From: Yuukianura sp. NJ FZ-2021
Taxonomy: Eukaryota
Assembly (NCBI GenBank): GCA_046563655.1
Contig: CM102289.1
Coordinates: 5,208,001 to 5,272,000, forward strand
Length of the DNA: 64,000 nt
Reading direction: 5' to 3'
Position 1 is the first letter of the stretch. Each line of letters begins with the position of its first letter. The notes under the pieces were generated by a model. The model had not been told where the DNA came from, made no database searches, and was given only the letters and a program-made list of their open reading frames with translations. This document shows, in pieces, positions 9,513-58,463 of the stretch. Both the position numbers and the translations under genes were made by a program.

Positions 9513-9760
9513 GGTAGCACGCCATTGTATCAATTGAATTGTATCAACTGCCATTGCATCAACTGAATTGTGTCAATTTGAATTGTATCAACTGGCCAAT
9601 TGTATCAACGAGTGTGATGCTTAATTTAGCTTAGGTTAGGTTACGTTGGTTGATACAAGTAGCCGTTGACACAATTGAGCGTTGATACAATTCAAATTGA
9701 CACAATTCAGTTGATGCAATGGCAGTTGATACAATTCAATTGACACAATGGCATGGAACC
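9513..9760. mobile_element. Non-autonomous foldback MITE, Mutator(MULE)-like, 9-bp TSD
   Basis: ACTTGAAGC flanks both ends (9504-9512 and 9761-9769). The ~80-bp terminal inverted arms (GGTAGCACGCCATTGTATCAATTG... / ...CAATTGACACAATGGCATGGAACC) are built of TGTATCAA-like units. The centre contains TTAGGTTAGG. No ORF. Confidence 0.9.
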
Positions 9761-32365: not shown

Positions 32366-35300
32366 TTATTTGGAGTTGATGTACTCTCGAATCAAGTAGG
32401 AGATGGAGTAGCTCTCAGAAGTGTTTAAAATGATCTTGACTCCTTTAGCTTCACTGCGCACGATCAGCATCAAGTAGTTGGTCGTTGGGATGTAGTTGAG
32501 AAGATCAGAAAAGTTGTAATTTGCAATTACATTTTTAGTACGTTCCTCCAAAAGAAAAATTCCAGTTTCATCGACAATTAGCCAGAGGTTTCGTGGCCAT
32601 GAAGGTGTGAATGATTGCTTAAAAAGATTAATTAAAATAGAATTATGTTTAATTAATATAAATTATAAATTATTTAATCAATTGAATTATATAGAATTTA
32701 CGTACCACAACTGAAAACAGACTGCCTCTGTAGAGTGGCCATGAAGTGAGTAGGTTGAAGATGCTTTTGTATGAATCTTCTGCTTGACTTCCCACTAGAC
32801 TTTGATGGTAGTATGACACTCGTTCGTAGGAAATGTTCACGGACAAATTGGTTGGAAAATATTTGCTCAAAATACTGCAGTAGTCTGGAAATTCGCCTGG
32901 ATCCATTTGCTCGTAGTTTCCGAGATGAATTTGAGACAACAGAGCAATCAAAATTTCCTTGAAACAAAAATGAAAGAAAAAAAAATTTTAACCTTTTTAG
33001 TTTTGTGCAAATTTTTCTTTGAAAATCGACATACTCCTTCGTTGGTGTTGATTGGATACTTGTTGGTTTTGATATTGAACAGAAGTTGTTGCAGTAGAAG
33101 TTCCTTCTCAATTGGGTTGTTCAAGTTCAAGTGCTTCGTTAGGTACTTTTTGAAAACCAATTTGTATTTTGGCGCCGTTTGGCCATTTCCGCGTGCAGGA
33201 CTTCCAGCACCTTCCCAGCGACTCAAAACGTCGACGATTGTTGTCGCTGGAACCAAATAGCTTTCGCAGTAGCTTCCATTCAAAGTACTCGTTTCATAAA
33301 TTCCATAACCTTTATTAAATCCGGAAAGTTAAAGTTGGGTTCAGTGACCTTTTAAAATTAAAATCAAGTGAGGTCATTTACCTCTGCAGTCCAAACCATT
33401 GAGTCCAACGTAGTTAAAGATGACACCGAGAACGTCTTGGACTGTGTCGTAGTGATTGGCAAGGTCCACCGTGTAGTAGTTGTTGTTCAAAAGATAAATT
33501 TTGACACTAATGGGTTTGAAGTGTATCAAAAAACTGATTTCGGTTGAACTCGGAATGAATTTCCGAACGGCTTTGGTCACCTTGTTGTAACTGTTTGTGT
33601 TTTGAAGCGACTAGACAAGTGAAAATTTATAAAATTTCAAAAATTATTAAAAATGAAATTTTGATTTTTTGTTAAAGTGTTAGTACCTTCATGACAATTT
33701 TGGCATAATCTCCAACCACAGTGACTCCGTCCATCGCAAAATACTTGAGATGCGTTAGAAGGTAGTTCATAATCAGTTTGTTCGTGGGCAACAAGTAGTT
33801 TGCCAGCAAGTTAAGCAATGCCCATGTCCTACGCGTCAGTGCAGAGTTGGGCATCACCGAATTCGTTTGTTTGATCAGTTGAAGGTAAACTTCGTTCAGT
33901 AAGTTGTTGTTGGCCAATCGAATCAAAAATGGTTTCAGAGGTCCATCGCCCTGTGTATAACTGAGGATAAATTTAAACGTTTCCAATGCTGCCGCCTCTT
34001 CTGATTGGTTCAATTTCAAGAGACTGTGAGCAAGAGCCGTTTTGGAGTACGTGAAGTAAGCAGAGAACTGTTTCCGGTTCTTTGATTTGAGTGTGTTGGT
34101 TCCCTTGTCGAAATTTAAGTAGTTGTTGGCTATGAGCAAGTTTCGAGCGTCGACGAGATTGCGCAGAAGCTTTGATCTGTGTCCATTGGTGATGAGGGGG
34201 TGACTAAATTTGGCTTCGGTTCGCTTTAGTTTTGGGTAGTAGCTAGTAATTAGTGTAAAAATGTCATCAGTAAATTTAGTTTTGAAAACGAATTTGGTGG
34301 CGGGAAGGTTGATGACGAGAGACTCGTCTTGAATTTGGAGCGTTTGAATTTCTTCATAGGCAATGGAGTTTAGCACCGTCATGTCCTGTTGAATGAGCAG
34401 AAGTTGAGTGGCGTTGATCCCAAGTAGCAAATGTGGATCTGTTCAAACATGGTAATAATTTTTCAAAAATCTTATCATTTTGTGATTCTTTTTAAATATT
34501 TTTTTTACCGTAATCTCTATATCCGTAGTAGCTCAAATTAAATAAAGTTGTTCCATAAAAGTTTAGTTTTCGGACGCAGTTCAAGTACCGAAGTTGGAGC
34601 GAGAATTTATTTTCGTTCAGTTGGGACACTTGATAGTGCGAATCTTCAAGCAGTGGTGTCTATGTAAAAAAAAATTTTTTTTTAAATTAAATTTTCAAAA
34701 TTTGAATTGAAAATAATTACCCATTGTTCCGTAGATTTGAGTTTGAGGAGACGTGGTGGCAGCGTGTCTTCCATTCTGAACTCTTCGTCTGGTTTGTAGT
34801 TTCCGAGTAGAACTTGGAGCTGGATTCCAGCGAGTGCCACGCCCACTTTCTCAGAAACTGTGTACTTGTCCAATCGGATGACTTCGTGGATACACTGGAG
34901 ATAGTTGAGGTTGATCTCGAGCGGATGCGTAGGAGAGGGGAGAATTGCTTTGAACAGACGCTTCTTCAATACCAACTTTTTACGGGGATTCAGAAGCAAC
35001 AGATTGGGTGGGGTCGTTTGCGATGTAATTTCATTCGATCTAGAAGAAAGTAGAATCGAAACTTTCAAAATCTGAATTTCAAAAAAGTGTTTCAGTTTTG
35101 GTTAACTGACCTCTCCCAGCTAGCAATGAGGTCATAGACATGATCGTATTTCTGAAGGTAGTACATCTCCGTAAGCTCTGAATTTGATTCGTAGATTCCC
35201 CACGTCCCGTCGTTGATAAACTCAGTTTTGAGTAGTAGCGACAATTTGCCTAACAAGCTTCCATACGTATCTGCTGGGTGGATGTTGAGTAGCAAGTAGC

Positions 35301-38300
35301 TGTTGTTTAGCAAGTACAGTTTGATGTGATGGATCAATTGTTGCTGGTTGTGTTGAAAGTAGTACTAGAAAAATTAACGGTTCATTTTTTTCCTACAAAA
35401 TCTAAAAAATTTTGACAAAAAGTTATTGAAAAAAACTTACATTAACTTCAATTAGCGATGGAACAACTTTTCGGTTTCCCCAAATATCAACTGTTGACTT
35501 GAGAAGCGCTGCAATTTGGTTGTGGATTCTGGAGTCTCCAGTGCTTGTTCCCACTTTATTCAAAAAGTGTCCCAGGTACTGAAAAAGCAAAAATTAGACA
35601 AATTTGTAAAATTTTTAAAGAACAACTAATCGAAAGACAAACTTTTTTAAACGCATAGCATGTACATTACCTTTTTCAATTCACTGCTACACTGGAAAAT
35701 TCTCATCACAAATTGAAGGAGGCCAAGTAGCTTGAGCGTTGCGTTTACGTTTGGATTCCCATTGAGTTGGCGCAAAATTTGAATATAAATTTCATCTCTT
35801 AGTTCCTCATGTTCAAGTCCATGTGTTACGAGTGTACGTACAAAGTGCGTGTTTCCAGATCTTGTTGAAGTCAAATATTTTTGTAACTCCTAAACAAAAT
35901 TAATAAAATTTTAGACTAAAAAAGAGCATTTCAAAATTTTAGTACTAACTTTCCAAATGTTGAGAGCCAGTTGAATGTTATCTGGGTCGTAGAGGTAGAT
36001 GTGCGAATTGCTAATTGTGTTACATTTTGAGTATTTGAGCATATCCGATTTCGGTATAAGTTTTGGCTTTTTCTTAAGCGTGTCCATTAAGTTAGATTCA
36101 TAAATGTCATTGAAGTAGTCGTTTGCATAATTAATCAGATCATAGCTGAGTGGTTGTTGCCGTGACGGACTGGACGAGTCGTCAGAGTCAATTTCAATGT
36201 CACCGGGGTTCGAATCCTGGTGATGGTTTCGACCGTTTGTCATTTTCAAACATGGCGGCTGAACCGGTTGCTCCACAAGTACTGTTTCCGGTGGAGGGAG
36301 ATCGGGAACTTTCGGCGGTTCTTCCGGAAGATGTTTAACGATTCCATTTGCAAGTCGAACTGATTCATAAATCGGTTCGTCCGGATTTGAGCCCGATTTG
36401 GTAAGGGGTGGATTTTTGCATGTCGGGGGTGGAGGGGGTGGATAGAAAGTGGGAGGCGGAGGGGGTGGAAGCGTGGGTTCCGGCAGAGTCGGCGGATGTT
36501 TTGGAATAATCTTGCCAGTAATTGCGTGACCCCGGGCAACCTGCTGCTCTGGCAGTACTTCTGGGGGTGGAAGGGGTTCGGATACTTCTGACCCCTCAGA
36601 AGGTGCTGTTGACTGAATTGGAGATTGGATTGTGTTGATGGAGTTCTGTGATCGATCAAAGTCAGAGATGAGACTGTCATTTTCATTGACGCTTGCACTT
36701 TCATCATCATCTTCTTCGTTCATGTCATAGTCATCATCGGTCAGACTAGTAAATGATGAGTTGATTGACGCAGACGTTTTGACAACTTCTTGACGCTTGC
36801 TTATGTCCGGGGATCCCTCTTCGTTGAGTAACAAATCCAGGAGTTCATCAACACTGTTGTAATTGGATCCACTTGTAGAAGAATTTCTGCGTTCTTCCTC
36901 TCTATCACGTAATTCCTTTTCAATTCGTTTCATTTCCTTCATGGATTTAACTACTTCCCGCCCAAACTTTCCACGTAAATGGGATTGAATTATGAGCGCC
37001 GACTTTTTGAGTTTGAGAAAATGAAGCCGCTGTTTGAGACTTCTGTAGTAGCGTTGAATTCTAATGGCAGCTGTAATTTTAACTCGAAATTGGTTTTTGA
37101 CAATATAGGAGCGCCATCTAGCTTGAATTTTAATTGCGGCTTGAAGTAGGAGCCAATTTCTTGCTGACTCCAGTCGCGTATGAAGATCGTTTCGTAAAAA
37201 TATTCTGGATGTTCCTAACTGGAAGTCTTCGGGTCTCGAAAACTTTTGACTTCCTTCACTTACTTTGGCAATAATTGTACTGCAAGGTCAAAAAAAAAGT
37301 TTCAGTATTCAGTGTTGTTTTTTGTTTTTGAAAATTTGAAAATTTTTTAGGAAAAAACATTTTGACTTACTCAATACTAGTGACATTTCCTTTTGATTTG
37401 ACTAGAATTTTGTACTTGTTTGTGAATTCTGAAAATCCATAATTGACTGGATACCCCATTTGCTTGATTTTTACTAAATCTACGATTCCAAGGTAGTTCA
37501 GTTGCTCCAAAATGTAATTCGCGTCGTAGTTGTTTGGCGTTTTGGTGAAGTTTGGTTTTAGACATCGGATGTACCTAAAATTTAGAAAAAATTGGAATTC
37601 CAAATTTTTGATCTTCGACATTTTTTGTGGAAATTGATTGATCGAATTTTACCATGGTTCAGATGATTGGAGTACACTCATGAGACTGCTCAGTTCTTGT
37701 CTGAAGTCTTCGATAAGCGTTGACTTGTATTTGAGTGTGGCCGTTGTAACTTTATCGTTACAACTGATGATGCATTTGATCATGTCATTATCAAGTAAGT
37801 AATTGTGGAAACCATCTTGCACCAAATGGCGGTTTTTGTTAACGAAGCCATCAACTGTGTATGTTACGGCTCCTGCGTAATGAACTACGTTAAACTGTTC
37901 TTTCCAAAAACGACGATCATTTGGAAGATTAAAGGAAGCGTGATTTGAGTGTTCCGTAGTTAAATTTTGTAAAAATGAACCATCGGATCCCTGTTTTTAG
38001 AAAATTTAAGAATTAAAACCCAGAATTTTTGAAATTAGAAAGCTACAAAACTCACTTTTGGTAAATGGCATTGCTCGCTGAGTAATTTGAGTAAACTGCG
38101 TGGCGTCCTTTCCAGAAATTCCAGACAAGTTGAATTGTCTACAAAGGAAATGTAGCTGAAATCCAATCCTTCACTTTGGTACTGCAAAAAAATGAAATTC
38201 AAGAGTTTAAAAATTAAAAAAATCGTCCCAAAAGGAAACAGATGCTGCATGTCAAAAATTCTTGAATTCACTTTACCATTTCCTGCTCCATTCTAAAAAT

Positions 38301-40377
38301 GTATTCATTAAAGTATCCTTGCAGTTTTTCATTGCTGTAGTTGATACAAAGTTGCTCAAAAGAATTTTTTGTAAAGTTTTCAAATCCGAAAATGTCCAAA
38401 AGTCCCACAAAAGTTGAGACTCCTTGGATATCTCTGTTGATTCGACTGTTGATGAAGTAGACCAAGTAGTTGAATATCTTCATGTACAAGTACTGACTCA
38501 TTGAGTGTCGGTTGTCTGATGCTTCCATTGGTCGAAATGGAATGTCAGTCACAATTCCACGAATTGTAATTTGGCGCTGAAGAAGTAGCGACTGCAGTGT
38601 ACTCGGGGAAAGTTGCAGCAATTTTCCAATGGTGTTTAAAATTTCAAGTGACTCAGGAGTCAGTCGACTGATCTCCACATCTTCATCGTTTGGCTAAAAA
38701 ATAAGTTTAGCAAAAATGTTTAAAATTGGAAAGATTCGTTTTTGAAATGAACTTTACCATGAATTCCAAATTTCCAAACCAGAGAATGACTGCGAGGAGA
38801 CTGAAAATGGTGTTGATCGAGTCTGGACTGAATTCGAGGACGTTGAGAGACACAAGTAGATGGTTCCAGTTTGTGTGATCAGTTGCATGTGTGGTTCCTG
38901 GAGCTCCTGGAACGAATTGGTTACAGTACTTATACTGGATGGGCTGAAGACCGTACTTTTCTAAACTCGCGCCACTGCTCAACAGTTGGTAGAAAATGTG
39001 GTAGTTTCGTTCGTGTTGGGATTGACCCACGATTCGACTTTTTTCCAACAAGTAGTTAGTGACAACGGCTCCAGTAATTGCGTTGTGTGAAAAGTAAATT
39101 TGAAGGAATTTTCCAAATCGACTTGAATTGTTATTGCGGACAGTCGTAGCATTTCCTGAAATTGTTAGTGTTTTTAGATTTTGAAATTGAAATTTTGTAA
39201 ATAAAGTTGGGTGTGTTTTACCGAAGGCTTCTAGAATGACATTTCCCTCCAGAATTTGTTCTTGAAGCCAGTAGTTTTCATTGGAACTGATTTCGCAGAG
39301 ATACTGAAGAACAAATTTGCTGGTTTCCGTTTTACCAGAACCACTTTCTCCACTGATCAGAATTGACTGTGGAACGGACTCTTCAAAACGATTCGTAAGT
39401 TGTTCATAACATTTTTGAGTTATGGAAAAAATGTGTGGTAAATGATGTGATTTTGACACAATGGGTTGCATTCTCGACGACTCCTTCGCTGGTGTATACT
39501 GATGAATGTAGTCCTTTTCCAAATTTCAAAAAATATCTAATTTTACAATTATTCTTTCCAGAACTTGATTTTTTTTTTCAAAAAAATATATTCTTACGAA
39601 TCCATAAATATCCAATTCCTTGTATGGATTAATAGCCAACAGAATATTGTCAATGTAAGTCTATAAGAATTCCACGCATTATTTCAATTTTCCTAGTAAA
39701 TTTCAAAATGTTAACTTTTTTTTTTGGTAATGGATTTTTACATAAATTGTGTCCTGGTTGTATCTACTCCAGAGATTCTTGTTAATAATTTCAATGTTGA
39801 TGTTGGATATTTTCGTCATATCTGAGACATTCATTTCCATTTCTAGAATAAGAAAAAAAGTTGGAAATTTTGAAAAATGAAAAAATCGTTTCATTCCATT
39901 AACTTTTCTTCCGGGTTTCTCATAATCTATTTCCTACTTCTACGTACTACTTCTCATCTCCTATTGATTATTTTTAGAAGTCAAGAACGGATGGAGGGGG
40001 TAATTCTGTTGCAAGTCATTACGCACTGGAGAACAAAAAATCACCCCTATATCCTATCTACACAAAAAATGTAAAAATGTTCTTCACCCTTTCACATTTG
40101 CTCTACACTCCAAACCACTCTCAAAATCTAATTTAAAATTCATTTACAAAATTTCTTGGAACAAATTTTTATTTAATAAAAATTCAGAAGCTATCCTACC
40201 CTTAGATGCTGACATTTTTCAGAAAATGTTGCAAAACTTTGTATTAAATATTTTAAAATTTAAATTTAAAAACTTTTTGTTGAAAGAGTAAAGTTCCGAG
40301 AAAATTTCAATGAATGTTAAATTGCAAAGCTTACCATTTTCTTGTACTTGCCCGTTGACTTTTTCCTGTTGGCCCAT
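32366..40377 (-). CDS. Unconventional MyTH4-FERM myosin (motor, 3 IQ, Pro-rich linker, MyTH4-FERM-MyTH4-FERM), most consistent with class XXII
   Basis: About 19 exons. P-loop GESGSGKT, switch I NNNSSRFGK, switch II DIFGFE, YIRCLKPN. IQ motifs IQARWRS, IQRYYRS, IQSHLRG (~36960-37140). MyTH4 cores ELRDEIYIQILRQ and LLNEVYLQLIKQT, each followed by a FERM-like region. No SH3 or PH domain recognised. Candidate first exon 40377-40335 (MGQQEKVNGQVQEN) splices in phase to 39842. Stop at 32368-32366. Confidence 0.92.
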
Positions 40378-43180: not shown

Positions 43181-44522
43181 ATGGGTTGCAGTGTGTCTGA
43201 CGCCTCTTTGCTAAAAATTGCTGCATATTTTGGAGCTTTTGTAGGCCTTTTCCCAGTTTTTGACATTAAGAAGTCAATTTACGAACTAAGTTGGAAAAGT
43301 TTGAATGGATTTTGCACAATTTTTGTACTTAGCTTTGCCATTTGCTCTTTACCACTCGTAGTCCCATTTGACATTGCCACCATCAACACAGCAGTTGATA
43401 TTGTCCATTTCATTTCCGAACTAAATTTAAAACTTGCTCATGTAATGTTTTGGACTCATTTGGCGTACATAAGCAGCACATACTTTGCATACATGTACTT
43501 TTTGCCAAGTATTATCCAATTATTTAGTAGAATCGACACATACATTAAAAGCAGCAAACTTCGGTGCAATTTTACAGCAAAAGGACTCGTTACCGCAATT
43601 TCTCCTGTTTTGCTTGTTGTTGGAAGTCTTATAATGGAGTCAGTTTATGCACTTCTACGGATCGTAGGTTTTGAGCTAAATTTTCCAAACTTTGAAATTT
43701 ATGGATTGAACATTCCGTTCAAAATTTTGAACACCATAGTTGCAGTTTTTATGCTTTTAGTCGTATGTCCAAGTATTGTTGTCATTGTTTTCATTTCTTT
43801 CATAACGGTAATATTAGAGCAACGGCTGACTAAAATTCAAGAGTTGTTGAACGTGGAACATCGAGTGACTGAAATTTGCGGAATTTTGAAAGGCGGAATT
43901 TGGCATAAAAAGGTTGTCACACGGGGTTTCAACTTTGCTGCAGCCGAAATAATCGAACTGCATGAAATTTTTGAAAAATTTGCAAATGGAACTCAAGTAT
44001 TTTTTGTAATTGAGCTTTGCTTCACGTCCTTTGCGCTAACCTTGACTACTTTTCATGTGTGTACTACAATGAATATTATTTTGTATGTGTCGCCTATTCT
44101 GCTTTTGATAAACGTTACCATCATAGGTGCAATAATTTTAAAACTAGTGTGGCTCACTAACTGTGGAGAACGACTTGCGTCAAAGGTAACGTTTAACTAA
44201 CAAAAGTTCGTTTTGACATTTTTGATTTTTTGTTTTTTATGGTTTTAGAGGAATTTACTTTTCAAGAGTGCTTCCTTGATACCGCCAATAACGGTATCTG
44301 ATCAAGAAAGTTTGGCGTACCTAAAACAGTTGACAGCGGTTGCAAAATTTGAACTAACTGGATTTGGCTATTTCAAAATTAATCGAACACTGCTGACGTC
44401 GGTAAGCAAAATCAAAACAAAGCCAAAACAAAAACAAATCACTCGCATTAGTTTTCTTTTGTTAGATTTTGAGTGCTGTTGTTACTTACAACGTAGTGCT
44501 GGTGCAATTTCAAGGTTCGTAG
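43181..44522 (+). CDS. Gustatory receptor (7TM chemoreceptor) family protein
   Basis: Exons 43181-44185, 44249-44401, 44466-44522. Multiple hydrophobic helices. C-terminal LTGFGYFKINRTLLTS|ILSAVVTYNVVLVQF matches the GR TYhhhhhQF signature, with typical phase-0 C-terminal introns. TATAAAA at 43080. Confidence 0.92.
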
Positions 44523-45606
44523 GAGTTGTAGTGCGATAACTGCACAAGCATAACGCAAGTCACAAGTAGTCGTGTATGAATGTCGAAGCAACCAATGGTC
44601 AATCTGTACAATTTTTAACCTAAGGAAATGTTGTAGTATCTCCGAATTATCTGAATAGTTGTACCGTAATACATGTATAGGATTACCGTATTACATGTAC
44701 TTTCCCGTTTTCTGAATTTCAAATGTCGTGACTCAGCAGTACGCATTTTGCACCTGAATTAAGTATCCGTGCACTAATTAATCATAAATTAAAACGACAA
44801 CACTTGAAAGTTGATGTTGCCTAACTCTGAAATAACATGAAATGGCAGGTCAGACAGACAGACAAACAACGTCGACACATCAAGTGGTTTTGGATGCTTA
44901 ATAATACTCTAAATGTTACAATTTCGAATTCACTAAAGAAAAATTTTGACAAGGTAATTTCCAAAGTGCTCTATGCACTGTATAGCAAACAAGTAGCCGG
45001 CAAACATTAAACGTGCATCTAAACATTCGAATTTTGGCAAAAGGTTTGAAAAAATGTAGAAGTTTTAGTTTACAAAAGAATATGAAGACCAAGCTAAAAT
45101 ATTGGTAAACAAAAGTTAGATAAAAAGGGAATGACAAAAGGAAAATTATTTATTTTTCATCACGCAAAATTGCAAATGGAGAATTATTTATTTTTCATTA
45201 TGCAAAATTACTTAATTTTTTTTCCAACTTAGAGTTTGAAGTCTTTAGTGCCTGCAACCGTATCTGGTCAGACGTTCCGCTGTTCTTGGTCATGGTCAAG
45301 CAATTGTGCAAATGAAAAAAATTCTTTGAGTGCTGAAATTGTAATTACTAAAATGGAAAATTTGTTGACGATGTGAAAGTGGCATGAATAATTTAGCGCC
45401 ATAAAACGAATTCCCTCTTTTTCAATTTTGCCAAATACCCGTAATCTTCTCACAAATTCTAATATTTTCAGAGAGTTTTCTTAACGAAAAGCGAAACCTT
45501 TTTTTGTTAAGCGAAATTTTTAACTTTTTCAACAAAATTCACGCTACACAATTAGCACACCAAATTCTTTTGATTGCAATTTTATTTTATACCTGTTGTT
45601 TAGAAA

Positions 45607-47010
45607 ATGGTCAACTCTGAAGTTTCAGTTTCCGAAATCTCTCTCATTCGCGCCTTGGCTCGATTCGGTTATTTTACGGGGATATTCCCAATATCGAATT
45701 TGCACGGTTCAAAATTTCACTTCCGCTGGAAAAGTCCGTCTGGAATTTGCACAATTTTCTGTTTTCTCTTTAACACAATTTTAGTCCCATTTATGTTTAT
45801 TTTTATTGAATTGCTAAACAAAACAATGGTTGATGAAAAATCATTTGCGAAGATATACAACATGTTTTACATCAAAGTCGCACAGCTATTTCTCTATCTT
45901 AGTTTTAGTTGTAGCATATTGGCATACTACGCGTACTTTTACAATCTCCCGCGAATTTTGAAACTATTCCAAACAATAGCATATCACGTCCAGAACAGTA
46001 AATTTCGATGTGGTTACACATGGAAACAAACTCTACACCTCGTTCTTCCTGTTTTGCTGTTTCTTATTCATAATGTAATTTTTATGTTACACTGCGCGTT
46101 TTGTACAAATCAGCACCCTTCAAACTTCCTCTTCAAAACTCCAAAAATTTTCTTTCCAAATTTTTGCATGCATACACTTACTCAGTTTGATTTTGATTGA
46201 ATTTACGGAGCTTTTCCTTGTTGCTCTTGTGACGTTGGTATCGTCAATAGTTGAGCGACGCCTACGAAACGTTGAGCAATTTTTATTTCCAGAAGAAACG
46301 GCCAGTAAAATTTCAAAAACTTTAGAAGACCGGACGTGGTGCACAAGAAATTTTTTGTCAAATTTTGGTTTTGATGCGGCTGCAGCTGAAATAATTCGGC
46401 TGGGGGATATTTTCGAACAATTCGTTGACGCCGTTCAAATATTTCTTAGTATCCACCTAGGCTTTACCACGTTCACTTTTCTCATTTGTTCTTTCCATCT
46501 CGTGACTACATTGACAAAAGCATGGCATCTTTTCCCTGTCTTGTATTTCATGGATATGTTGAATTTTGTATTGCTGTTTATCAAAATCAGTTGGATTGCT
46601 AACTCCGGAGAACGCATCTCTACAAGGGTAAAAGGACTCAATTGGATTTCATTTTTTTTGAGTTCTTACAAAGTAAGTCATGATTTATTTCAATTGACGT
46701 TATTTAATTTGTTTTGAATTATTTTCTAGAAAAATGCACTTGTGCAGAGAATTGCAACACTCCCAACGACGTTGGTGTTAGATGCTGAGGGACTATACTA
46801 TCTGAACAACCTGGTAGCAAATGTGTCATTTCAATTGACAGCACTTGGATTTTTCAAAATTCGGAGATCATTAATAACATCTGTAAGCTACGTTTAGACA
46901 ACTTAGCACAAACTGCTTTGAAATGCCTAAACTGTTGGTGTGACATTTCCTCCCAGATTTTGAGTGCTGTGGTGACCTACAACGTCGTCCTGTATCAATT
47001 TAACAATTGA
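45607..47010 (+). pseudogene. Second gustatory receptor paralog with one frameshift (pseudogene or sequencing indel)
   Basis: Exons 45607-46627, 46730-46882, 46957-47010 (ILSAVVTYNVVLYQFNN*). Exon 1 changes frame between ~46079 and ~46140. The downstream frame SFQIFACIHLLSLILIEF...VERRL aligns without gaps to PFKILNTIV...LEQRL of the first GR. Confidence 0.85.
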
Positions 47011-47546: not shown

Positions 47547-48728
47547 GGGTTTATGCCATTCCGTCAAAAACAAGACATAAGCAGAAAACACATAGGCACC
47601 AAAGACATAAGCAAGAACGACTGAAGCAACACAAGCACATGATCACCTCAAACACATCAGCAGACAGGACATAAGCAGGCGCTTTTGGATGTTGAAGCGT
47701 TTTGGGTTGAGGCGATTTTTCGAAAGAGGCATATTTTTTTGGCACATATTGAACAGGCGCTTTTTGGTTACCGTAAATGCTCTAATATAAGCGCGCCGCT
47801 TATAAGAATTTTCGACCTTTCCGACGCGCCTCTATTAGAACACTATTTATTACCGGAATAATTAATAAGTTTTAAGTGAGGCAAAATTCAATTAATAGTG
47901 ATCCCATTCGTCGTTGGTTTCACTTGCTTTCTTCAAAGCCTCCTCCAGCTGTGCCCACTGTAGTAATACTTGGCATGTCAAAAAATATTCCAGTCATGGC
48001 AATAATATTTGGGTTTGAAATTTTAGTCGTAACAGCGAGGTTGGAAGTGTACATGACGAACTCAACAAGCTTCTCAAATAACGAATTTGGATCTTTTTGA
48101 GCCAACGACGTTTTCTTTCTCAAACTGAGGTCATGGCGCTTCATAAATTTTTGTAGCCAACCACTGCTGGCCTGAAATTCGTTTGTTTGAAGCACTGCAT
48201 AGTAGACTTCCCTAGCTTTCACACGAATAGATTTGAAAGAGACACTTTGCTGGTTGGTGCGCTGATTTAAAATCCAATCGTAAACCATTTTGTCTGCTTC
48301 TTTAGAAAGTTGTTTTCTCGAGTCGAAAGCTAAAATTAGTTAAATTTTTACCGATTTTATCCTTTTGCTTCAGCCAACTGAAGACTTGTTTTCGGTGTAT
48401 TCCGAAGTGAGCTGCGGTACCACCCGTGCTATTAGTAGAAGCGTACTGAACCACTTTTAACTTAAAACTGAGATCAAACAATCGTCTTTTAGTTAACACC
48501 ATTTTTAAAACTTGTATTTAAGTGCTACATTTTGATTTGAGTCAAATTAGCAACATAGAAAACAGATGATGTCACTTTGCTCTAGGCTCTGCTTTAAACT
48601 CAAGTTAGCTACCGCGCTTATATCGCAATTTGCCCCCGCTGAAACCGCGCTTGCATTAGAGTATGCGCTTATATTAGAATACGCGCTTGCATTAGAGCAT
48701 TTACGGTAGGCGCATATGACCTGGAACC
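47547..48728. mobile_element. Foldback/MULE-like MITE remnant that hosts the pogo insertion
   Basis: Termini GGGTTTATGCCATT (47547) and ...ATGACCTGGAACC (48728) resemble those of 9513-9760. Internal ACATAAGC and GGCGC motif arrays. The GGCGC array is split by the pogo element. No matching TSD. Confidence 0.5.
47771..48706 (-). mobile_element. pogo/Tigger-type DNA transposon, internally deleted
   Basis: TA on both sides. 25-bp TIR CCGTAAATGCTCTAATATAAGCGCG with 2 mismatches in the right copy. Subterminal CGCTT(G/A)(C/T)ATTAGA repeats. Minus-strand transposase: Brinker-type HTH (FKLKVVQYA...AAHFGIHRKQVFSW), CENP-B/Tc5 HTH (FQASSGWLQKFMKRHDLSLRKKT), and the start of a DDE_1 domain lacking the first Asp (IIAM-TGIFFDMP), then truncated. 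Confidence 0.92.
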
Positions 48729-49004
48729 AGGAATGGAACTAATTGCAGGATTTCATTACGGGAGGGTTCAGACGAGATTGGCCATCCTCCAGCGTCAAGA
48801 TGTGGTGGAGAAGAGATCACGTTTTTATGAATAATGAAAACCAATAGGAACAGCCCATTTTCATTTGATCAAAAGATTTGGATCAATTATTTTATCTTTA
48901 ACTATATTTTTAATTGCTCAAATTTATGTCTTCAACCTGCCATTGGCAGGTGCATGTTTTTAGTTAAATGTTGAATAAATCTTTTCAACAGCCCAACTCC
49001 GAAA

Positions 49005-49540
49005 ATAATAATCTACATGGACGAGACTTGGCTTGACTCAAACGCCCGTGTCACTAAAGCGTGGATTTCAAAGGTGTATGCACACGCAGTACTCATTCAA
49101 AAATCATGTTGTTTCGAAAGGGGTTGCGAATCCTCGCGGGTACGGTATTTTATCGGGTTGAAGGACAATTTAATTTTAATGCTTATATTGTTCTTGGCAC
49201 TAATTACATGTGTTTACATTTAACTAGCATCACTGGCATAATACAACCGCTTGCAAAAATTTAGAAAATTAAGAAAGGAGCAGAAATGGCAGATTATCAT
49301 CAGAACTTAAATGCAGCGGTATAACGGTTCCTTCTAACAAACGATTATTAAGTTAATTTCTTTTTCTTATACAACGATAAATAGGTATACTTAAAATGGA
49401 TTGCAGAAGTTGTGGAATACTTAAAGGACAAAGGCAGTCACATGATTGTGATTGATAACACCCCATACCAATCTAAAGGTAATGCTCCCACTTCGAAAGC
49501 AACAAAGAAGGAGCTGTATGATTGGCTCGCTGAACGCGTC
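49005..49540 (+). pseudogene. Decayed IS630-Tc1/mariner transposase fragment (DETW...DYH...DNxPY type, Sailor/DD82E-like)
   Basis: IIYMDETWLDSN, then GIIQPLAKI*KIKKGAEMADYHQNLNAA (in-frame stop), intron 49319-49384, then VYLKWIAE...IVIDNTPYQS...PTSKATKKELYDWL. Interrupted at ~49545 before the final catalytic Glu region. Confidence 0.75.
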
Positions 49541-49842
49541 ATGGATCCGACCATTCAACTGGGAACCTACCTCTTGGTCAGTTATCCGGTAGCTTTACTT
49601 TGCCTAACTAGTAAACCAGTAGGTACTTGGCCACACTGGCACCTTTAACAGTCTAGTAAGTAAATTAGCAAATACACTTCTCTTAAAACCGTCGTTTCAC
49701 TTCCTTTATTTCTGCGAGTCCGCGAGAACCACAACTACCATCAGGATGGGCCCACCTCAATGGGAACTTCAGCTCAACACCAGTCGTCAAAAAAAAGACC
49801 AAGAGGAGGAAGCGTCAAGGAAAGACACTACCTCTAGGTACG

Positions 49843-50186: not shown

Positions 50187-50529
50187 GTCCGCGGGATCTA
50201 AACATAACTGCACGTGGGTATATCAAGACGCTGCCCGTGGGGTCTCCTGCAATACCTCGAGGGAGGAGGACCTCCCGCCTCACCTTTTCCCTCCTTTCCC
50301 CACCTTTCCCTTGAGAGCTGTCCCTAATGCTTTTAGCACCTGACGTTAAAATCATGTTATATTATCTACTACCAAATCTCCCAAAGATCTCAAACTTAAC
50401 AAGTTAAAACAAAACCTGGTAAGAAGCTCGAATTAAATAGATATACTACTATATACCTACTATTTAGACAAACAATAATATGTAACAGCAATTCTGGCCC
50501 AACGCACAATTGAGTGAGAATTAGAATTC

Positions 50530-51380
50530 AAGGTCAAACTAAAAAAATACCCTGTCAAATAGACCTCTGTCCTGTCCGAACAGAATCTGTGGGAACTTCA
50601 AGATAAGTCGAAATCATGCAGTAATGTGCTAAATACGATGCCTCCTCCACTATTTAATTATTACCAAATGTGTCTGCCATGTGAATCGCTGATGCGACGA
50701 ATTGCTGAGAAACATGTTGGTTTTGATGATTTTAAATACACCAGTTAATTAATTCTCTTATTTCTACATCCCGAGTTTTTGTTTTGGTAGAATCTGTATC
50801 GCTACATTGGTGGGCTCCTTGAGCGCGATTTTCCTGATACTACAGTATCCTTACTGTCTCCAGATGAGACTAATGATACTGGTAAATTTTTGAGGAAACT
50901 CTCTAGCCTCATTGGAGAGAGACTTCTGGATCCTAGTGCGCTGCCTAATGTAAGTATACCGCTTAACGGGCATAACGTAAACTAAATTACAATTTTTGTT
51001 TCTTTATCCTATTGTTTTTGTATAGTGTACTCAGGATATAATATCATACATTTGTGTCCTATTTATCGACAAAATGAAAACTTGCAAAAGAATTTTGCAT
51101 TCATGTAAGTAAAACTTTTCAATTCAGATTTTTATTCTTATTTTGTCTGATTTGAGTTTAATTTTGCAGGTTTTGGGATGTCACTGCTTCCCAATTTTAA
51201 ATTTCTGACACCCTTAACGAGGTTCAAGAGAACGAGACCAACAACGAATTAGTTTACTATATGTGTGACTTTCTAGCTGGAAGTAACTCCACACCGGAAA
51301 TTTTAGGGGTTCCTAAATTTCTGGATAATGGGCTTCCCGGCTTTCAACGATGTGAAAAAATTCATGTAAAAAAAATTTAA
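50530..51380 (+). pseudogene. Multi-exon gene fragment of unknown identity, weak HECT-like C-terminal motif
   Basis: Clear splice signals around 50791-50949, 51026-51104 and from 51170. The final segment FWDVTASQF*...LVYYMCDFLAGSNSTPEILGVPKFLDNGLPGFQRC resembles the HECT FW...FxTG...P..G...LPxxxC pattern. In-frame stop and phase mismatch present. Confidence 0.3.
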
Positions 51381-51444
51381 CTGTGGAGCCTGTGAGTCAG
51401 AGTTTTATGCACGTAGTGTCCTCAACAAAGATGTTGGGGGTTCT

Positions 51445-52591
51445 GTGACTACGCCATTAGTATTCACTTCAAATAACCTTTCCAGCAGCTTGGAATCGCT
51501 GACCCGAGAAATGAATGAAACCATCACAGAAGAAACCGAAACTGCTAGACATGTGAACGTCTTGTCACGAGAAGTTAACACGTTTCAAAGAGGCTTCATG
51601 CAAACGTATTTCCATCTAAATCCAATCGCGGAAATTATGCAGTTCACGGACCTTCAATCACATTGCCGTAGCCACACAATTCCCTTACTCGCCGTTAATC
51701 CTCAAAGACTCAGCAAAGATTTACGAAGTATCAACCGAAAAATCAGAAGCGATGGTTACACCTTGGCGATTCCAGCAGAAGATGTTTCAAAATACTACAA
51801 ATTGCGAATCGCAGACTGTACCTTCACTCCGGAAGAAAGAGTAATTTTTCGAGTTAAAATTCCAATTCGACAAATTGAAGAAAATTGGAAACTATTTGAA
51901 ATGGTTAACATTCCGTTTGGTTTCAAGGGAAGCATTTGCATGATCCATCATGCACCCATTTACGTCGCCGTTGCAGCCAACAACATCATCACCATCCAAG
52001 GGACTCAGCTACAACAGTGTCAACCACACTCTGGACTCTGCCTCGTTCCCCGAACAAACAGTAATCCAATGGTCGGATTCTTTTGTGTCAAACATCCTGA
52101 AAGGTTCTAGCGTACGAGAGCTGAATGACGTATGTATTTTTGAGTGTGTGTTGGGAAACAACGAATTAACGGTCACTCAATTAAGCTATAACACTTTTAT
52201 CCTAACTGGAAAAGTTGAAGGCACTAAAATTGATTGTGGTGAAACTAAGAGCTTTTCGGGAGGTCCACCGACGGAAGGCGTGGGAAGCTTCCAGGTCAAA
52301 TTAAGCTGTGATTGTTCAGTCAAAATTCCCGGAAGATCGCCAATTCCACCTCCGTATCCTTGCCCAGATGACCTCCTAAACTTTCAAACAGTCCATATCA
52401 TAATCCCTGCCGTTATGTCCAAAATTGATGTCATGCTAAAGGCTAATAATCGGGGTGAACCAGTTACTTATCCCCACCTCCGCGCAGTTTTCAATGAAAC
52501 TTGGGACCTTGGTTCACCCCGCCTAAACTTAACGGAAGTCAGCAGAATCAAACAATTGGTAGTTCCAAATTTAATTAACAATTTAGAGTAG
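51445..52591 (+). pseudogene. Retroelement/viral envelope glycoprotein ectodomain fragment (baculovirus F / errantivirus env-like), frameshifted
   Basis: Intronless. Heptad-like helix, then P.RL..DL..I......LAIP.....YYKL...C.....IFRVKIPI....WKLFEMVNIPF and a Cys-rich region. Frameshift near 52090. Lacks the N-terminal cleavage site/fusion peptide and the TM anchor. Confidence 0.75.
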
Positions 52592-52884
52592 GTATTGAGT
52601 AACGTGTTCCAAAAAGCATTACACTTCGGCAGAGGACATTTCGTTTCCATGCCACATCAGTTTGGACTGGACACTGTCCATATTTTCAAAGTCGGTCATT
52701 TGCTTAAAAACGTGGCCAGTTGAGGGTTCACTTGACACTGTGTCGCGAAACATAACCAAATAGTGGCGTATTCCCATCAAAATTTCAATTAGATCGTCAT
52801 GGACAATCTCAATGACAACAGGTCCTTTTTCAAGAAAAAGGCGCTATTGTTAGCGATTTGACGAGGACTCCAGGCGAGAGACAT
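52583..52884 (-). pseudogene. Small intronless ORF remnant of unknown function
   Basis: MSLAWSPRQIANNSA, then after a frameshift LEKGPVVIEIVHDDLIEILMGIRHYLVMFRD...SAEV*CFLEHVTQYLL*. AT/TATA-rich spacer upstream. No family recognised. Confidence 0.3.
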
Positions 52885-53460
52885 GGTTTGTACACTTCAA
52901 AATCCAAATTTATACTGAGGAAGGTTATAATTTGTATTTATAATATATACTTTTTCTATTTATATAAAATATAATTAATTAATTATGTATGTTGCTTTCA
53001 TAGTATAATATTTAATACAACATCAAATATTCGCAACATGGAATTTTCGTAAAATGCAATGCATTACCCGTCATGAAGTATGATTTGCCACCCTCCTGTT
53101 TCAAACCACAAGGAACAGCTGATTGCCATCTCACTTTGAGCATGTGATCTGTCAATCTCTTTTGTTGTTACCAAGGCAGAAATCAGCTGAGTTTGCAAGC
53201 ATGTGTTGGATCATGCAGTAACTAATGCGAGAAAGTTGCCACCGTTTCAGTTTTAAAATGAAATTAAAAGTGATAGTGATAAACACGGATTAGACTAAGT
53301 GAAGATGCCGAATTTGCACTTTACAGTTTTCTTGTGTCCCTTTGACACATTCAAAGAAGATGCTATCCATAATCCGTTTGAGGCACCTATATAATAAGGA
53401 GTCACTGGAGAGCAAAGTAACTCATAATCCTTCAGTTTCCAATTTTCTTAGAAACTCAAG

Positions 53461-54182
53461 ATGGTCCGAACACGACAACATGGTGAGACTTAATTTAAAT
53501 ACTAATAGATTTTTGAAAATCCTTCTTTAATGCTAATAATATATATTATATATTTTGCAGGGAATCGCGTGACTCCAAACCCAAAACTCGGACGAAAAAA
53601 AAAACGCGAACTGGTAAGAATTGAATCGACAATCGTAAATAACAGACTTGATAACTGTTTATTTATTTTTTGATTAGACAAAAAATATTATGCGAAGGCA
53701 ATTCTGTCACATCGTGAAGTTAATGGACAACTGGAATTCAAGGTGAAGTGGGTTGGAAACACAGAAACATGGGAGCCTGTTGAAAACTTAAAGTCAGCGT
53801 CCTACTTGGTAGCTAAGTATTGGGGCTCATTTAATGGTAAGTTTTCCTTAATTCATCTTAATATTAACCATTTATTATATAAATTGTATTAAGTTTTATG
53901 GTATCTTATTTTCTAGGTTTTTCTGTTAAGGAAATTCAATATTGCCTACACAATAACGAGCGAATGGAGTATCTGGTGTATTGGGGAGCACCATACGAAG
54001 GCTGGACTCCGTGGGAACCCGAGTCATTCGTTTCCGAATCAGCAAAAGAAGCCTTCGAGAAAAGGACAATCAACACAATATTTAATAACTTATCAGACTA
54101 TTTCGAGAATCTAGGCACTACGCCTGGCTGTCCGGAGGTAGATCTGCTTTTGAATGATAACGAGCTAATATTTTCTCAATAG
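53461..54182 (+). CDS. Small tandem-chromodomain protein (needs one extra A in the poly-A at 53595-53604)
   Basis: Exons 53461-53482, 53561-53613, 53678-53836, 53917-54182. CD1: YYAKAILSHREVNGQLEFKVKWVGNTETWEPVENL. CD2: FSVKEIQYCLHNNERMEYLVYWGAPYEGWTPWEPESFV. Basic NLS-like RKKK. The chromodomain exons are solid; the first two exons are inferred. Confidence 0.8.
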
Positions 54183-54261
54183 TAGAGAATTTTTGCTTAC
54201 ATATATTGGACATCAATATCATAATAACAATAATATATAATAATATATATGAAGCTTAAGC

Positions 54262-54615
54262 TTCAAAATCAACGGACTGGAGTACAAAGGGTCAGAAGTG
54301 AATTTGGATCACCAGGAGAAAGTTGACCCTCTTTTCGCCATGCGGACGAATTGGCATCTCCAGCCGACGCTTAATTTTACAGACCTCAAGAAGAGCCCAT
54401 TGCTGCTGGAAGACCGGAAGGACGGAGCCGACTCCCGCGGACACCCGGTAGCTGCTCCCCATCCAATGCCTTGGTCAACCATCGCTTTTACTGTCGTTGT
54501 TATTGCTCTGGCCGCGATCATCATTGGATGCTATTTCCGGAAAGCAGTAAGAGTGTCCGTCGTCGCAACACCGATCAAGCCATTTGAAGAGAGCGAGATG
54601 AAAACCAAGGATTAA
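54262..54615 (+). pseudogene. C-terminal fragment of a second env-like glycoprotein with TM anchor
   Basis: KINGL...NWHLQPTLNFTDL parallels KIDVML...TWDLGSPRLNLTEV of the upstream env fragment. It is followed by the TM segment TIAFTVVVIALAAIIIGCYF and a short tail. The stop overlaps a polypurine tract. Confidence 0.65.
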
Positions 54616-55015
54616 GGGAAGGTGTTAGAAAACTAGATTTGACTAGTTTTAGTTTTTCTCTACCTATTCCTTTGTATTCATGCTCTATTTTCTCTATCTA
54701 TTTTCAAGCTCTGTCCTTGTACTGTGAACCGGTCAACTGGCCATCTGTGAGTAAGAGGGCACAGTATTTTTCCTATTGATTAGGTCCCTTAGCAACTGGC
54801 CAAGGGATGCTAGCTTAAGTTCAACTTAAGCGTCAGTTCTATTTCGTTATGTTGTTATCATCGACGTTGAAGACGACCATCTCCAACGTGTCAACAGAAA
54901 CTCGGAAGATGAGTTTTAGGTTAGATTAGATTAGTAAAATACAAAGTTGCAAATTTTCCAAAATTCGCGAATTGATACAAAGTAAAACGTCGCAGGGTAG
55001 CAACTAAAAGTAACA
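54614..55015 (+). mobile_element. Polypurine tract plus putative 3' LTR
   Basis: AAGGGAAGG (54614-54622) is immediately followed by TGTTAG (54623). The candidate inverted end TAACA is at 55011-55015 (~393 bp). No partner LTR found in the window. Confidence 0.65.
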
Positions 55016-55426
55016 TCTATAAATATAGGCTGCAAGTGTGCAGCTCTTGGATCATTTCCTTCAGTTAAAGATTTTGTTATATTTTTAAGTAATAGTTCGA
55101 ATAGACTCTAAATTTTTCACACAATTTCCTTCTTCTTCTTCTTGAAAAATAAAAATTCTAAAATCCAGCTTTGCTGCTCTACTCCGCCACTTCTCTCTTC
55201 GCTTCTCTTCAACCAAGGGATCACTCGGGAACCACTTCGACGACTGGAGGCCCCTTCAACGATTACAAACGAGCAAAAAGCCAAGGTACAAACAATACAT
55301 AAACAATTAGTCAGTAGCATCGACAGGAAGGGACTGGGAAGGGTACAGGGCCTGTCGGTTCCTGGACGGGTTTTACAAGTCAGAAGGTTAGGGTTCCCGC
55401 CCCCGGATTTATCTTCGTGTTCCCAG

Positions 55427-55950
55427 CACCTCCGACGCGGGCAGTTGCGACTGACCCAAGGAGGTGGGGTTCACAGCTAAGTGGGCCCTTTGTGGTTTTC
55501 ATAGGTCCCCTTTTCAGTACCATTTTGCGCCGTCGCTCAAAGGGACAGTTGCGACTGACCCGAAGACGGTGGAGTCGGTCTGAAACCGGATTCGCGATTT
55601 TCTCATTTTTAATGTCTGCTTCTTCTTCCGAAATTCTCTCTCGTATTTTTCTCCATTTAACTAGGAAAACTCAATTAGGCCTTTTTAGCGCCACATGACC
55701 ACGCTCCTTTGCTAAGCGGTCAATCGGGTAGGGTACTTACTAGAAGTGGCCCCTTGACCCGGTAGGCCCTTACAGTCCGACTGGCCTCTATGAAGGGTCC
55801 CTTTAACTGACCGCCAACGAAGCAAAGAAAAAACCTCGGCCCCCAATCAAGTAGGGCTTTTTAGCGCCCCATGACCTCATTCCTACGCTAAGCGGCCTCA
55901 GACGTACGGCTCTTATTCGAAATAAGGCCCCTTGACCTCTGTGGGCCTTA
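55427..55950. repeat. Two pairs of diverged GC-rich hairpin repeats
   Basis: CAGTTGCGACTGACCC core at 55427-55466 and 55530-55569. A ~97-bp unit at ~55677-55772 and ~55853-55950. Confidence 0.8.
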
Positions 55951-56237: not shown

Positions 56238-58380
56238 TTAAAGTTTTTGTTTCTTTTTAGACCATTTTCGAATAACTTTGACAGTAACACTGTGCCAAGA
56301 ATTTACCAAAACACCCATCATGTTCCAAATCGATTCAATTTCCTTCGGCTGGGAATTGTAGTTGTTGTCAAAAGCTCTACAAGACAGCACCACTTCCGTT
56401 GCATTCTTTTCAACAAAAACTTTCACCTAGAATTTCAAAAGAAAAAATTAGAAAAAAATTTCATAATGTTTTGTGATATATCATGTGACCTATACCTGCC
56501 AAATTACCCAAGCCCATGCCACCCTCTTGTCTTCTTTCTGAACAATTTCTGCCTCCGTCCAACTTAATCCTCCGTTAACCGTGACATCTACTCGTCTAAT
56601 TCCATTTCCACCACCACTGAAAGCATAACCTTTGACCTCAATGGCCCTTTCAAGGTCAAAGGTCACCGTGTCTCCATCAGTCGGCACTAGAATGGCCGAT
56701 TGGACATTAGTGTAGAGGAGACTAGGAGCCGAGGAGTAGTCGATGTTGTTCCAGTTGTACTTGGGATGGTAAAATCTGTACATCCTCTGTTCCCAAACGC
56801 TGTCCACTTCAACTGTACTCAGGCTGATTCGGGTCAAAAATTTGACACTTTTGAATCCCGCCATTCCAGGAACAATCACTCTAACCGGGTAACCATGGTC
56901 AGGAGGCAGGAGGTCACCGTTCATTTCGTACGCTAAGAGCAACTGAGCGGCGGGATTCAGGCCGATCTCTGCTGGCACTGAAGCTCCAAAGCTCATGATT
57001 CCCGCGGGATCTTGGTCAGCGCCTTCGAAATCCAAGAATTTGAATTTTTCCGTGTCTAATTCTATTCCCGCCCTAGCTTGCGTTCCCGCTCCAGCCAAAA
57101 GTCCGAAATAGGCGAGAACGTCAGTGAGAAAAACCCCACCCCAAGTGGCCGTGCTAATTGCCGTGTGCTTGTAAGCTACCCCATGGGTGACTTTTATCTG
57201 AAATGAGAATACAATTTTTTAAACAATTTTATTTTATATGCATTTAATTAAATTGAAAGTCTTATTATTATTATCAATCATCGGTTGACCTTATTCATTT
57301 CTGTACGTCTGTTTCCTGCACACTGGAGCGTTACGTTGACCACGCGCTTTTTAAATTTCGTCTTCAAGTCATCCATAGTCAACACAATTGGCTTGTCGAG
57401 TCCAAATCCATCAATTGTTATTGTATGATCGTCCCAATTGAGTTGAGGTACAACAAGGTGTAACCTTACGAAGTGGTAATCACTACAAAAACATAACATA
57501 ATGTTTTTTGTGTTATATTTTCCTAATTGTATTATTCATATCATTGCTTCTATTCTAATGTATTTCGAGCGTATATAGAAAATTCTGATCGTCAAAATCC
57601 AAAAATTAGTCGTGCCCACGACGCGAGTAAATTTTTCGACCATTTTAAGTGCTTTACTTATCGAAACTATTACAATTAGTGGATGGAAGAAATTAAAAAT
57701 TTAGCTCAAAATTCAAAAAACAAATCAAATTTAAAATTTTCTACAAACTGTTAAGTTATTATATGTAACAGAAATCCCCATCATCCCTAAATCTACACCT
57801 CCGATATTTGGGAATACCTCAATAATCCCCACTACAAAGCTCGAAAAATTTAAATTGTACGAAACAACGGTACTCACACGGGCGTGATGAATGACTTGAC
57901 CAAGTCTTTTGAGTAGGCATTTGCATTGAATGGTTTGAGTGTTATGACATCCATGACCTTTGACCTCTCTGCGCCCTCTACCTGAAACGGGTCAGCGTTG
58001 TGCTTTTCCTCTTCCTTTCTGTCCTCCAGTGCCAGGTTGCCGATTCGGAGCGACTCCAGAACTCTGTAAACTCTGGCGTGTTTGTGCACCGGGAGAGCAT
58101 TCCAGAAGGGTTCAAGGTGTCCACCACCAGCGGCAAATATGTCACGTCCGCCTGGATGCTTGTCCACAAAGTCAGTCAAGTCATAAACTCCTGCTCTGTA
58201 TGATGTCCAGATCCGTTTTGACTTTGTCACGTGACGTTCCACCTCGGAGTTGGTGAAAGTTGGCAAACTGGGCACCTCGAAGTCACAACCACAGGAGGAG
58301 TCATCTTCTGTAAAATTATGACCAAGAGTTTCAAAAATTCCAAATAGGAAAACTAAAATTAGCGATGGAAAAAATTTCAT
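56238..58380 (-). CDS. Sulfite oxidase family molybdo-heme enzyme (cytochrome b5 + Moco + dimerisation domains), divergent
   Basis: Exons 58380-57878, 57482-57290, 57197-56496, 56426-56238, phase-compatible. b5 heme motif FVDKHPGG...FWNALPVH. Mo-ligand LQCAGNRR. LAYEMNGDLLPPDHGYPVRVIVPG, VKGYAFSGGG, and C-terminal SQP...IWNMMGVLVNSWH. Confidence 0.95.
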
Positions 58381-58463
58381 TTTGAAAATAAATTGGAAAA
58401 GCCTTACAGTGCACAAAATGTTCAAGAACAATGAGAACCTTGTGCACTAAAGTCAAGGTCAAG

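Follow-up and report, generated by a model that had tools for sequence, protein, structure and literature searches.

The interval 53461..54182 (+) of the window, by which we mean the whole 64-kb stretch of DNA that was analysed, carries an intron-containing gene model that encodes a clear HP1-like chromodomain immediately followed by a divergent Polycomb/CBX-like one. A decayed sibling of this gene lies upstream, and alleles lacking part or all of the gene occur among the sequencing runs. The reading that we prefer, with a confidence that we would place at about even, is that of a lineage-restricted, low-copy nuclear gene of the HP1/Polycomb chromodomain superfamily, young and effector-less, or else of a very recent pseudogene of this kind.

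Gene anatomy and reading frame

The gene model comprises the following elements:

53388..53394 (+): TATA-like box, TATATAA, 67 nt 5' of the ATG, as read from the sequence
53461..53482 (+): exon 1, MVRTRQH (ATG plus six codons and one carried base), with the donor ATG/GTGAGA
53561..53613 (+): candidate exon 2 (53 nt), which contains a basic patch and, at 53595-53604, an A10 run
53678..53836 (+): exon 3, HP1-like chromodomain 1 (CD1), cage positions Y, W and N
53917..54182 (+): exon 4, divergent Polycomb/CBX-like chromodomain 2 (CD2), acidic tail and TAG stop

Translation starts at the ATG at 53461 and ends at the TAG at 54180-54182. The three introns of the model are of the GT-AG type with pyrimidine-rich acceptors, and all six splice sites are consensus-like. 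Within a window that is 62% A+T and has short introns, and is eukaryotic on that account, the exons contain 40-50% G+C, as compared with 19-25% in the introns and 17% in the 70 nt 3' of the stop; the step is visible even for exon 1, with 50% G+C against 19% in the intron directly after it. This exon/intron contrast and the consensus splice sites count in favor of a gene, and, together with the start and stop codons, they bear out the spliced gene that an earlier, sequence-only reading had placed here. On the minus strand over the gene there is no ORF longer than 61 codons, and the one such ORF that was checked belonged to no family.

The candidate exon 2 also looks real, with 47% G+C, a strong acceptor (TTTTGCAG/G) and a strong donor (CTG/GTAAGA), and it translates to NRVTPNPKLGRKKKREL in the phase of exon 1 and to ESRDSKPKTRTKKKTRT in the phase of exon 3. 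Its inclusion, however, breaks the frame: exons 1+2+3+4 sum to 500 nt, are out of frame as assembled and run into a stop at codon 48, so that the four-exon product of ~170 aa proposed earlier is absent from the assembly as it stands. When the 53-nt exon is skipped, exons 1+3+4 form 447 nt with 148 uninterrupted codons, and exons 3 and 4 are both fully open. Because exon 2 shifts the frame, the H3-like start encoded by exon 1 can be read through into the chromodomains solely in transcripts that skip exon 2. The run of A residues within exon 2 counts 10 A in the assembly, and no indel was seen in it among the 12 of 59 contig matches listed.

A real-looking exon that nevertheless breaks the frame at codon 48 counts against a live gene. 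It also supports the main rival explanation, namely that the locus is dead: a chromodomain gene would have been duplicated, the decaying duplicate would yield no protein now, and deletions would be clearing it from a junk-rich interval. We regard such a relic as possible, if rather doubtful. The four-exon reading is frame-broken, as a relic would be, but exons 3 and 4 are open throughout, exons 1+3+4 keep their 148 codons, and the six splice sites and the excess of exon over intron G+C are intact.

The two chromodomains and the acidic tail

Exon 3 is a clear chromodomain by both sequence tests and structural model. It matches the Pfam Chromo family (PF00385) over profile positions 4-51 of 53 with 33.2 bits (E 5.1e-8), thus passing the gathering cut-off of 25.1 bits, as expected for the first chromodomain of the earlier reading. 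In a comparison with PDB sequences, all 27 matches at E<=0.01 were chromodomains, led by CBX3 (1.5e-5) and including Rhino (4quc and 4u68, ~5e-5), the Rhino-derived Oxpecker (7vrf, E 8.8e-4), LHP1 and Polycomb. A single-sequence AlphaFold (AF2) model showed three strands and a helix at a pLDDT of 80, and a Foldseek search with this model ranked chromodomains first at non-significant values (E 0.08, TM 0.38). Passing the Pfam cut-off and folding confidently both speak against a relic.

CD2 is far more diverged. It scores 12.2 bits against Pfam Chromo (E 0.17), under the same 25.1-bit cut-off, and its single-sequence model is poor (pLDDT 48.7), although the same method folded CD1; both observations count against our preferred reading. 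Nonetheless, when residues 1-54 of exon 4 were compared with PDB sequences, CBX8 came out on top (E 0.0036), the best 13 of the 22 matches were chromodomains, and so were 15 of the 22 overall; the whole 87-residue exon gave 14 chromodomains among 17 matches (best E 0.011). The top matches of CD2 were CBX8, CBX6, CBX4 and CBX7. On a profile built from four chromodomain sequences, its score was equalled by 13 of 5000 shuffles, and a BLASTP comparison of CD1 with CD2 aligned the same core and strand pair (E 0.008). In a protein atlas, the Chromo cluster appeared for exon 4 at rank 5 with a score of 0.89, a recognition under the usual level. CD2 is very probably a genuine but strongly diverged chromodomain: the second adjacent chromodomain claimed by the earlier reading stands by its PDB likeness to CBX proteins and fails at the Pfam cut-off (12.2 vs 25.1 bits).

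The aromatic cage is incomplete in both domains. CD1 retains Y and W, and an N aligns with the third cage aromatic of CBX3, in agreement with the earlier observation that the third aromatic is missing here. For CD2 a full cage of F, W and Y had been suggested; F and W are present, but in gap-free alignments with CBX8 and CBX4 the third position is occupied by P, with the Y one residue later. The third cage position is thus non-aromatic in the alignments of both CD1 (N) and CD2 (P), for which reason one would expect methyl-lysine to be bound weakly or in an altered way. The incomplete cages would also suit a relic.

Beyond the chromodomains, the protein ends in a tail of 38 residues with six D/E and no K/R, which justifies its description as acidic. 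Neither Chromo_shadow nor any catalytic family gave a Pfam match at E<=1 in exon 3 or exon 4, in line with the absence of such domains noted from the sequence. The notion of a chromatin reader that lacks an effector domain holds up in this sense: the predicted reader pairs a firmly identified chromodomain with a divergent one, and no chromoshadow or catalytic domain was matched.

That these are chance chromodomain-like open frames in AT-rich DNA, flanked by chance splice sites, and that there is no gene at all, is scarcely credible. Homologues were not found in searches (see below) and CD2 is sub-threshold, as such a view would predict; but CD1 surpasses a curated cut-off at E 5.1e-8, both domains have the same orientation, the limits of each coincide exactly with consensus splice sites, the contrast in G+C is two-fold, and a decayed second copy has the same exon boundary.

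Sibling copy, deletion alleles and surroundings

The locus has the following neighbors in the window:

47923-48517 (-): pogo-type transposase fragment, with Tc5 HTH (E 9.8e-15) and Brinker DNA-binding domain (E 7.2e-10)
50324..50748 (+): decayed sibling, with an exon-2-like stretch, the donor CTG/GTAAGAA, a short intron, the acceptor TTAG/AC and a chromodomain frame
51370..52588 (+): F-type env fragment, broken into two frames that overlap (51370-52107 and 51944-52588)
52820..54912: presence/absence segment of 2093 bp, which takes in the complete gene as well as the membrane-span ORF downstream of it
54253..54615 (+): ORF (54253-54612 as ORF) with a hydrophobic, membrane-span-like stretch
56241-58446 (-): sulfite-oxidase-like gene with cytochrome b5, molybdopterin-binding and Mo-co dimerisation domains

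The sibling lies 3.2 kb upstream of the gene. Positions 50464-50537 are 73% identical to the 74 nt with which exon 3 opens, the TTAG/AC acceptor included, and the chromodomain frame that follows contains three internal stops. With these stops read as X, the sibling matches CD1 in BLASTP (13/24 identical, 54%; E 6e-8) and Pfam Chromo at E 0.073. A gapped alignment of 50324-50537 with 53502-53747 scored 96, as compared with a shuffle maximum of 47, while its upstream part alone was equalled by 4 of 500 shuffles. Donor, intron and acceptor are kept in both copies. Because the intron is kept, the sibling is a duplicate of genomic DNA, neither a retro-copy nor the end of a pol gene; and because the gene has introns of its own and a sibling with the same donor and acceptor, the gene spread as genomic DNA rather than in the transcript of a retroelement. 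Apart from the decayed sibling, no additional copy of the gene was found in the 64-kb window. A sibling that is already dead, with its three in-frame stops, is what one would expect to find beside a relic.

Five DNA sequencing runs cover the region, from two organisms whose flanks are ~99% identical to the window. Two of these runs contain a joint that connects 52819 directly to 54913 with a single C between them, removing the 2093-bp segment: X1 (in one contig, side 30) and X3 (in a 1684-nt contig, side 106). X3 also has a 594-nt contig over 53749-54250, with 15 differences. A different joint, 51426 to 54070, occurs in contigs of X2 and X5 and leaves the gene's tail alone, and a third, 54019 to 54196, removes the tail. 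The gene is thus a presence/absence variant, absent from some haplotypes or copies, and the existence of at least two different deletions suggests that it is dispensable in some of them.

Neither common repeats nor a duplicated target were seen at the ends of the 2093-bp segment. Fillers of a single base are characteristic of repaired deletions, and the 1-nt filler at the joint therefore marks the allele without the segment as deletion-like, not as an empty insertion site. The joints also fit a relic in the course of removal, in that 52819 to 54913 and 51426 to 54070 delete all or most of the gene and 54019 to 54196 deletes its tail.

Summed contig depth in X1, which is not a copy number, was 126-161 over the gene, whereas the sulfite-oxidase gene reached 231 and the stretch 54840-55106 reached 2034; this is taken as a hint against a high copy number of the gene. 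Run X5 has next to no cover over 51636-54038, and this was treated as blank and not as evidence. In X3, the run of the second organism, a very deep contig (1183) matches the AT-rich stretch 52657-53206 with small gaps and then diverges from the window; it is probably a repeat or a foreign sequence with a short piece in common.

According to the sequence-only reading, the gene lies inside retroelement debris, between two env fragments. The debris is fairly described, given the env fragment and the transposase fragment nearby. The F-type env and the Brinker domain of the pogo fragment also suggest that the host is probably an insect. Of the two env fragments, the upstream one is supported by a Pfam Baculo_F match of ORF 51370-52107 that is barely over the cut-off (24.5 vs 24.1 bits; E 1.3e-5; profile positions 185-377 of 609), its second frame, 51944-52588, matching no Pfam family. 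The downstream one is not: ORF 54253-54612 has no env match and no Pfam match at E<=0.01, with a single chance-level match at E<=10, and its best score in the protein atlas is just 0.76. A 6240-nt contig of X1 matches env 51484-52576 with 137 differences in ~1090 nt, from which it follows that the sample contains one or more further copies of the env element, in diverged form.

That the gene directly adjoins env debris counts against a host gene, and raises the question of whether it could be an accessory gene of an errantivirus-like retroelement, of another mobile element or of a virus, which would direct integration or dampen heterochromatic silencing and might use the H3-tail-like start as a decoy. 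We consider this unlikely. It is true that the gene comes right after the F-type env fragment and before the membrane-span ORF; that the sibling chromodomain, 50467-50748, sits just upstream of env (from ~50791); and that an alternative contig, which joins env sequence 50541-51426 to the gene tail at 54070-54240, ties the two together once more. Some errantiviruses of Cnidaria, Mollusca and Annelida are moreover described as having C-terminal pol chromodomains just before env (PMC13524379). However, no pol, gag or LTR was found around the gene in the window, and neither the gene nor the 2093-bp segment is flanked by an LTR, an inverted terminal repeat or a target-site duplication. Spliceosomal introns and a TATA-like box belong to the gene itself, the sibling retains its intron, and the alternative env-tail contig may represent another allele of the locus. 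As no relative was found in the viral contig collections either and the joint is deletion-like, the earlier suggestion of a mobile-element- or virus-borne gene is not supported, with no positive sign of carriage beyond adjacency.

Two further candidates for element structure were discarded. An origin of the 2093-bp segment as a Helitron or other cut-and-paste element was rejected since its ends, by eye, lack matching termini, and a polypurine tract followed by an LTR start after 54615 has no second LTR copy in the window.

Several other features of the window were recorded. The sulfite-oxidase-like gene, which is found in collinear order in every run, looks like a normal gene of the host. Between it and the gene lie a high-copy repeat of ~140 nt (54926-55068), with loose contig ends at 54926 and 55067-55069 in all four runs, a second high-copy repeat at 55374-55640 with a summed depth of up to 1153 in X1, and a pair of diverged direct repeats of ~75-100 nt (55671-55768 and 55847-55947; spacing 176 nt). 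Upstream, 48975-49645 may by eye be a mariner-like remnant, without a Pfam match, and 43181-44200 and 45604-46717 (+) are tandem paralogous multi-pass membrane ORFs, the second split over two overlapping frames. Neither of these membrane ORFs matched a Pfam family even at E<=10; by eye they resemble insect chemoreceptors, which they may be. Exons of an unconventional myosin, with motor head, IQ, MyTH4 and FERM-like domain, occupy 33672-39525 (-), and a 100-nt inverted repeat (9493-9592 and 9681-9780; 89% complementary, arms 88 nt apart) is perhaps the hairpin of a foldback or miniature element.

H3-like start, relatives and significance

The start of the protein, MVRTRQ, had been read as histone mimicry. 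Over the six frames of the window, the pattern M[AV]RT[KR]Q, which was picked post hoc, follows one of 1846 ATG codons, with 0.002 expected per window from base composition; this rarity by chance is a point in favor of the element-borne decoy. N-terminal mimics of H3 are defined by the motif iM-Z-R-X-K, in which Z is permissive for removal of the Met and can be any of seven residues, valine among them (as given in Chen et al. 2021, PMC8166343). M-V-R-T-R fits this motif in having V at Z and R at R2, but position 4 is R where K is required. Without its Met, the protein would start V-R-T-R-Q, as compared with A-R-T-K-Q in H3, sharing V and R2 with the mimics; the K of the motif, the residue that is methylated according to the same source (PMC8166343), is replaced by R at 4 in the gene described here. 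Two observations speak against the mimicry claim: the published motif is missed at its lysine, which also weakens the element-borne alternative, and MVRTRQ is uncoupled from the chromodomain frame as assembled when exon 2 is included. On its sequence, V-R-T-R-Q could conceivably serve as a non-methylatable plug.

An extended version of this idea, which we think highly unlikely, is that a polymorphic twin-chromodomain mini-protein with a non-methylatable copy of the H3 start would form a self-contained reader-plus-decoy in a heterochromatin conflict, between transposon and host or between haplotypes. Its V-R-T-R-Q would plug the H3 grooves of its own or other readers (e.g., PHD fingers, or a histone chaperone of the p55/RbAp48 type), and the A10 exon would determine whether a tailed form or an untailed or truncated one is made.

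Searches for relatives of the gene returned little. An exhaustive comparison of exon 4 with 1.84 billion representative proteins yielded no true relative, and word-based protein searches found nothing for exon 4 (at near lengths), for exon 3 or for the env ORF (both at longer lengths). Exon 4 had no relative in the viral, metagenome and prokaryote-genome contig collections, nor did exon 3 in the viral ones. Among metagenome contigs, exon 3 matched three loci with generic single chromodomains that are 38-44% identical to it, a likeness that is selected, since the loci were chosen through a common 8-residue pattern; none of the three has a relative of CD2. The lack of a homologue with constraint in the protein searches is compatible with a relic, and the failure of the protein and contig searches to bring up a close relative of either exon counts against our preferred reading.

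Two side observations came with these searches. By eye, one of the three metagenome chromodomains ends a long integrase-like ORF. The sole protein match of exon 4 (P0003), a bacterial-looking repeat protein of 3016 residues in which 28 short stretches match round a W..W motif, was dismissed as a repeat artefact.

Multi-chromodomain proteins include Tetrahymena Pdd1p and chloroplast cpSRP43, as well as remodellers of the CHD1 type, whose chromodomain pair reads the extreme N-terminus of H3 (ARTK4me). CHD1-type remodellers have at least two chromodomains per chain, as does the protein described here, but they are large, carry an ATPase or further modules and keep their chromodomains apart by a long linker, whereas CD2 begins right after the helix of CD1 and no further domain follows; and no CHD chain was among the PDB sequence matches of CD1 or CD2. 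The Polycomb/CBX proteins CBX8, CBX6, CBX4 and CBX7 have the core pattern RMEYLV.W......W.PWEPE in common with CD2. Their E-values to it, however, are just 0.004-0.2, the third cage tryptophan of CBX corresponds to the proline of CD2, and the gene has neither a Pc box nor any other CBX region. The integrase chromodomains of chromoviruses and env-carrying Ty3/gypsy elements can lie directly 5' of env, as reported for some non-insect errantiviruses (PMC13524379), but they are single, intron-less and fused to pol, while the gene has introns, its own ATG and no pol.

The gene also resembles the young chromodomain-only HP1 paralogues of flies, such as Oxpecker, which are likewise short, lacking a chromoshadow domain and lineage-restricted, with fast birth and loss (Helleu & Levine 2018, PMC6188558). 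Each of them has one chromodomain, as opposed to the two abutting ones found here. Membership of the HP1 family is described as resting on a chromoshadow domain, or on a lone chromodomain monophyletic with those of full HP1s (PMC6188558), and neither exon 3 nor exon 4 has a Chromo_shadow match at E<=1. The same study counts 121 HP1 duplications in 64 Diptera, 22 chromodomain-only gains among them, together with frequent losses, and notes that numerous fast-evolving chromodomain-only genes defy assignment to a family (PMC6188558). By analogy, the gene would fit the birth-and-death pattern described there for dipteran chromodomain-only HP1 paralogues. In the available text of the literature on tandem chromodomains and transposable elements in insects, and on chromodomains together with errantiviruses, no free-standing twin-chromodomain gene appears.

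Under our preferred reading of a young chromodomain gene, the gene would have been born and have spread through local duplication at the DNA level, leaving the decayed sibling upstream, in what appears to be an unstable interval rich in transposon and env debris beside the sulfite-oxidase gene, and it would still be segregating as a presence/absence variant. If the protein is expressed, from transcripts predicted to skip exon 2 where the full 148 codons are read, we infer that CD1 and CD2 would bind histone H3 tails. As there is no chromoshadow domain, hinge or enzyme, the predicted protein would be restricted to occupying or bridging marked tails, and it may compete with full-length HP1/Pc readers or modulate them.

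Whether the gene is live or newly dead, a virus- or transposon-borne histone-mimicking anti-silencer finds no positive support at this locus. A fresh pseudogene would simply capture the usual birth and death of genes in the family. If it is live, two abutting chromodomains that stand alone in ~150 residues would be an unusual architecture, to be added to the churn of HP1-like genes in insects, and the haplotypes with and without the gene would constitute a natural knock-out system for the effect of an effector-less reader on heterochromatin and transposon control.
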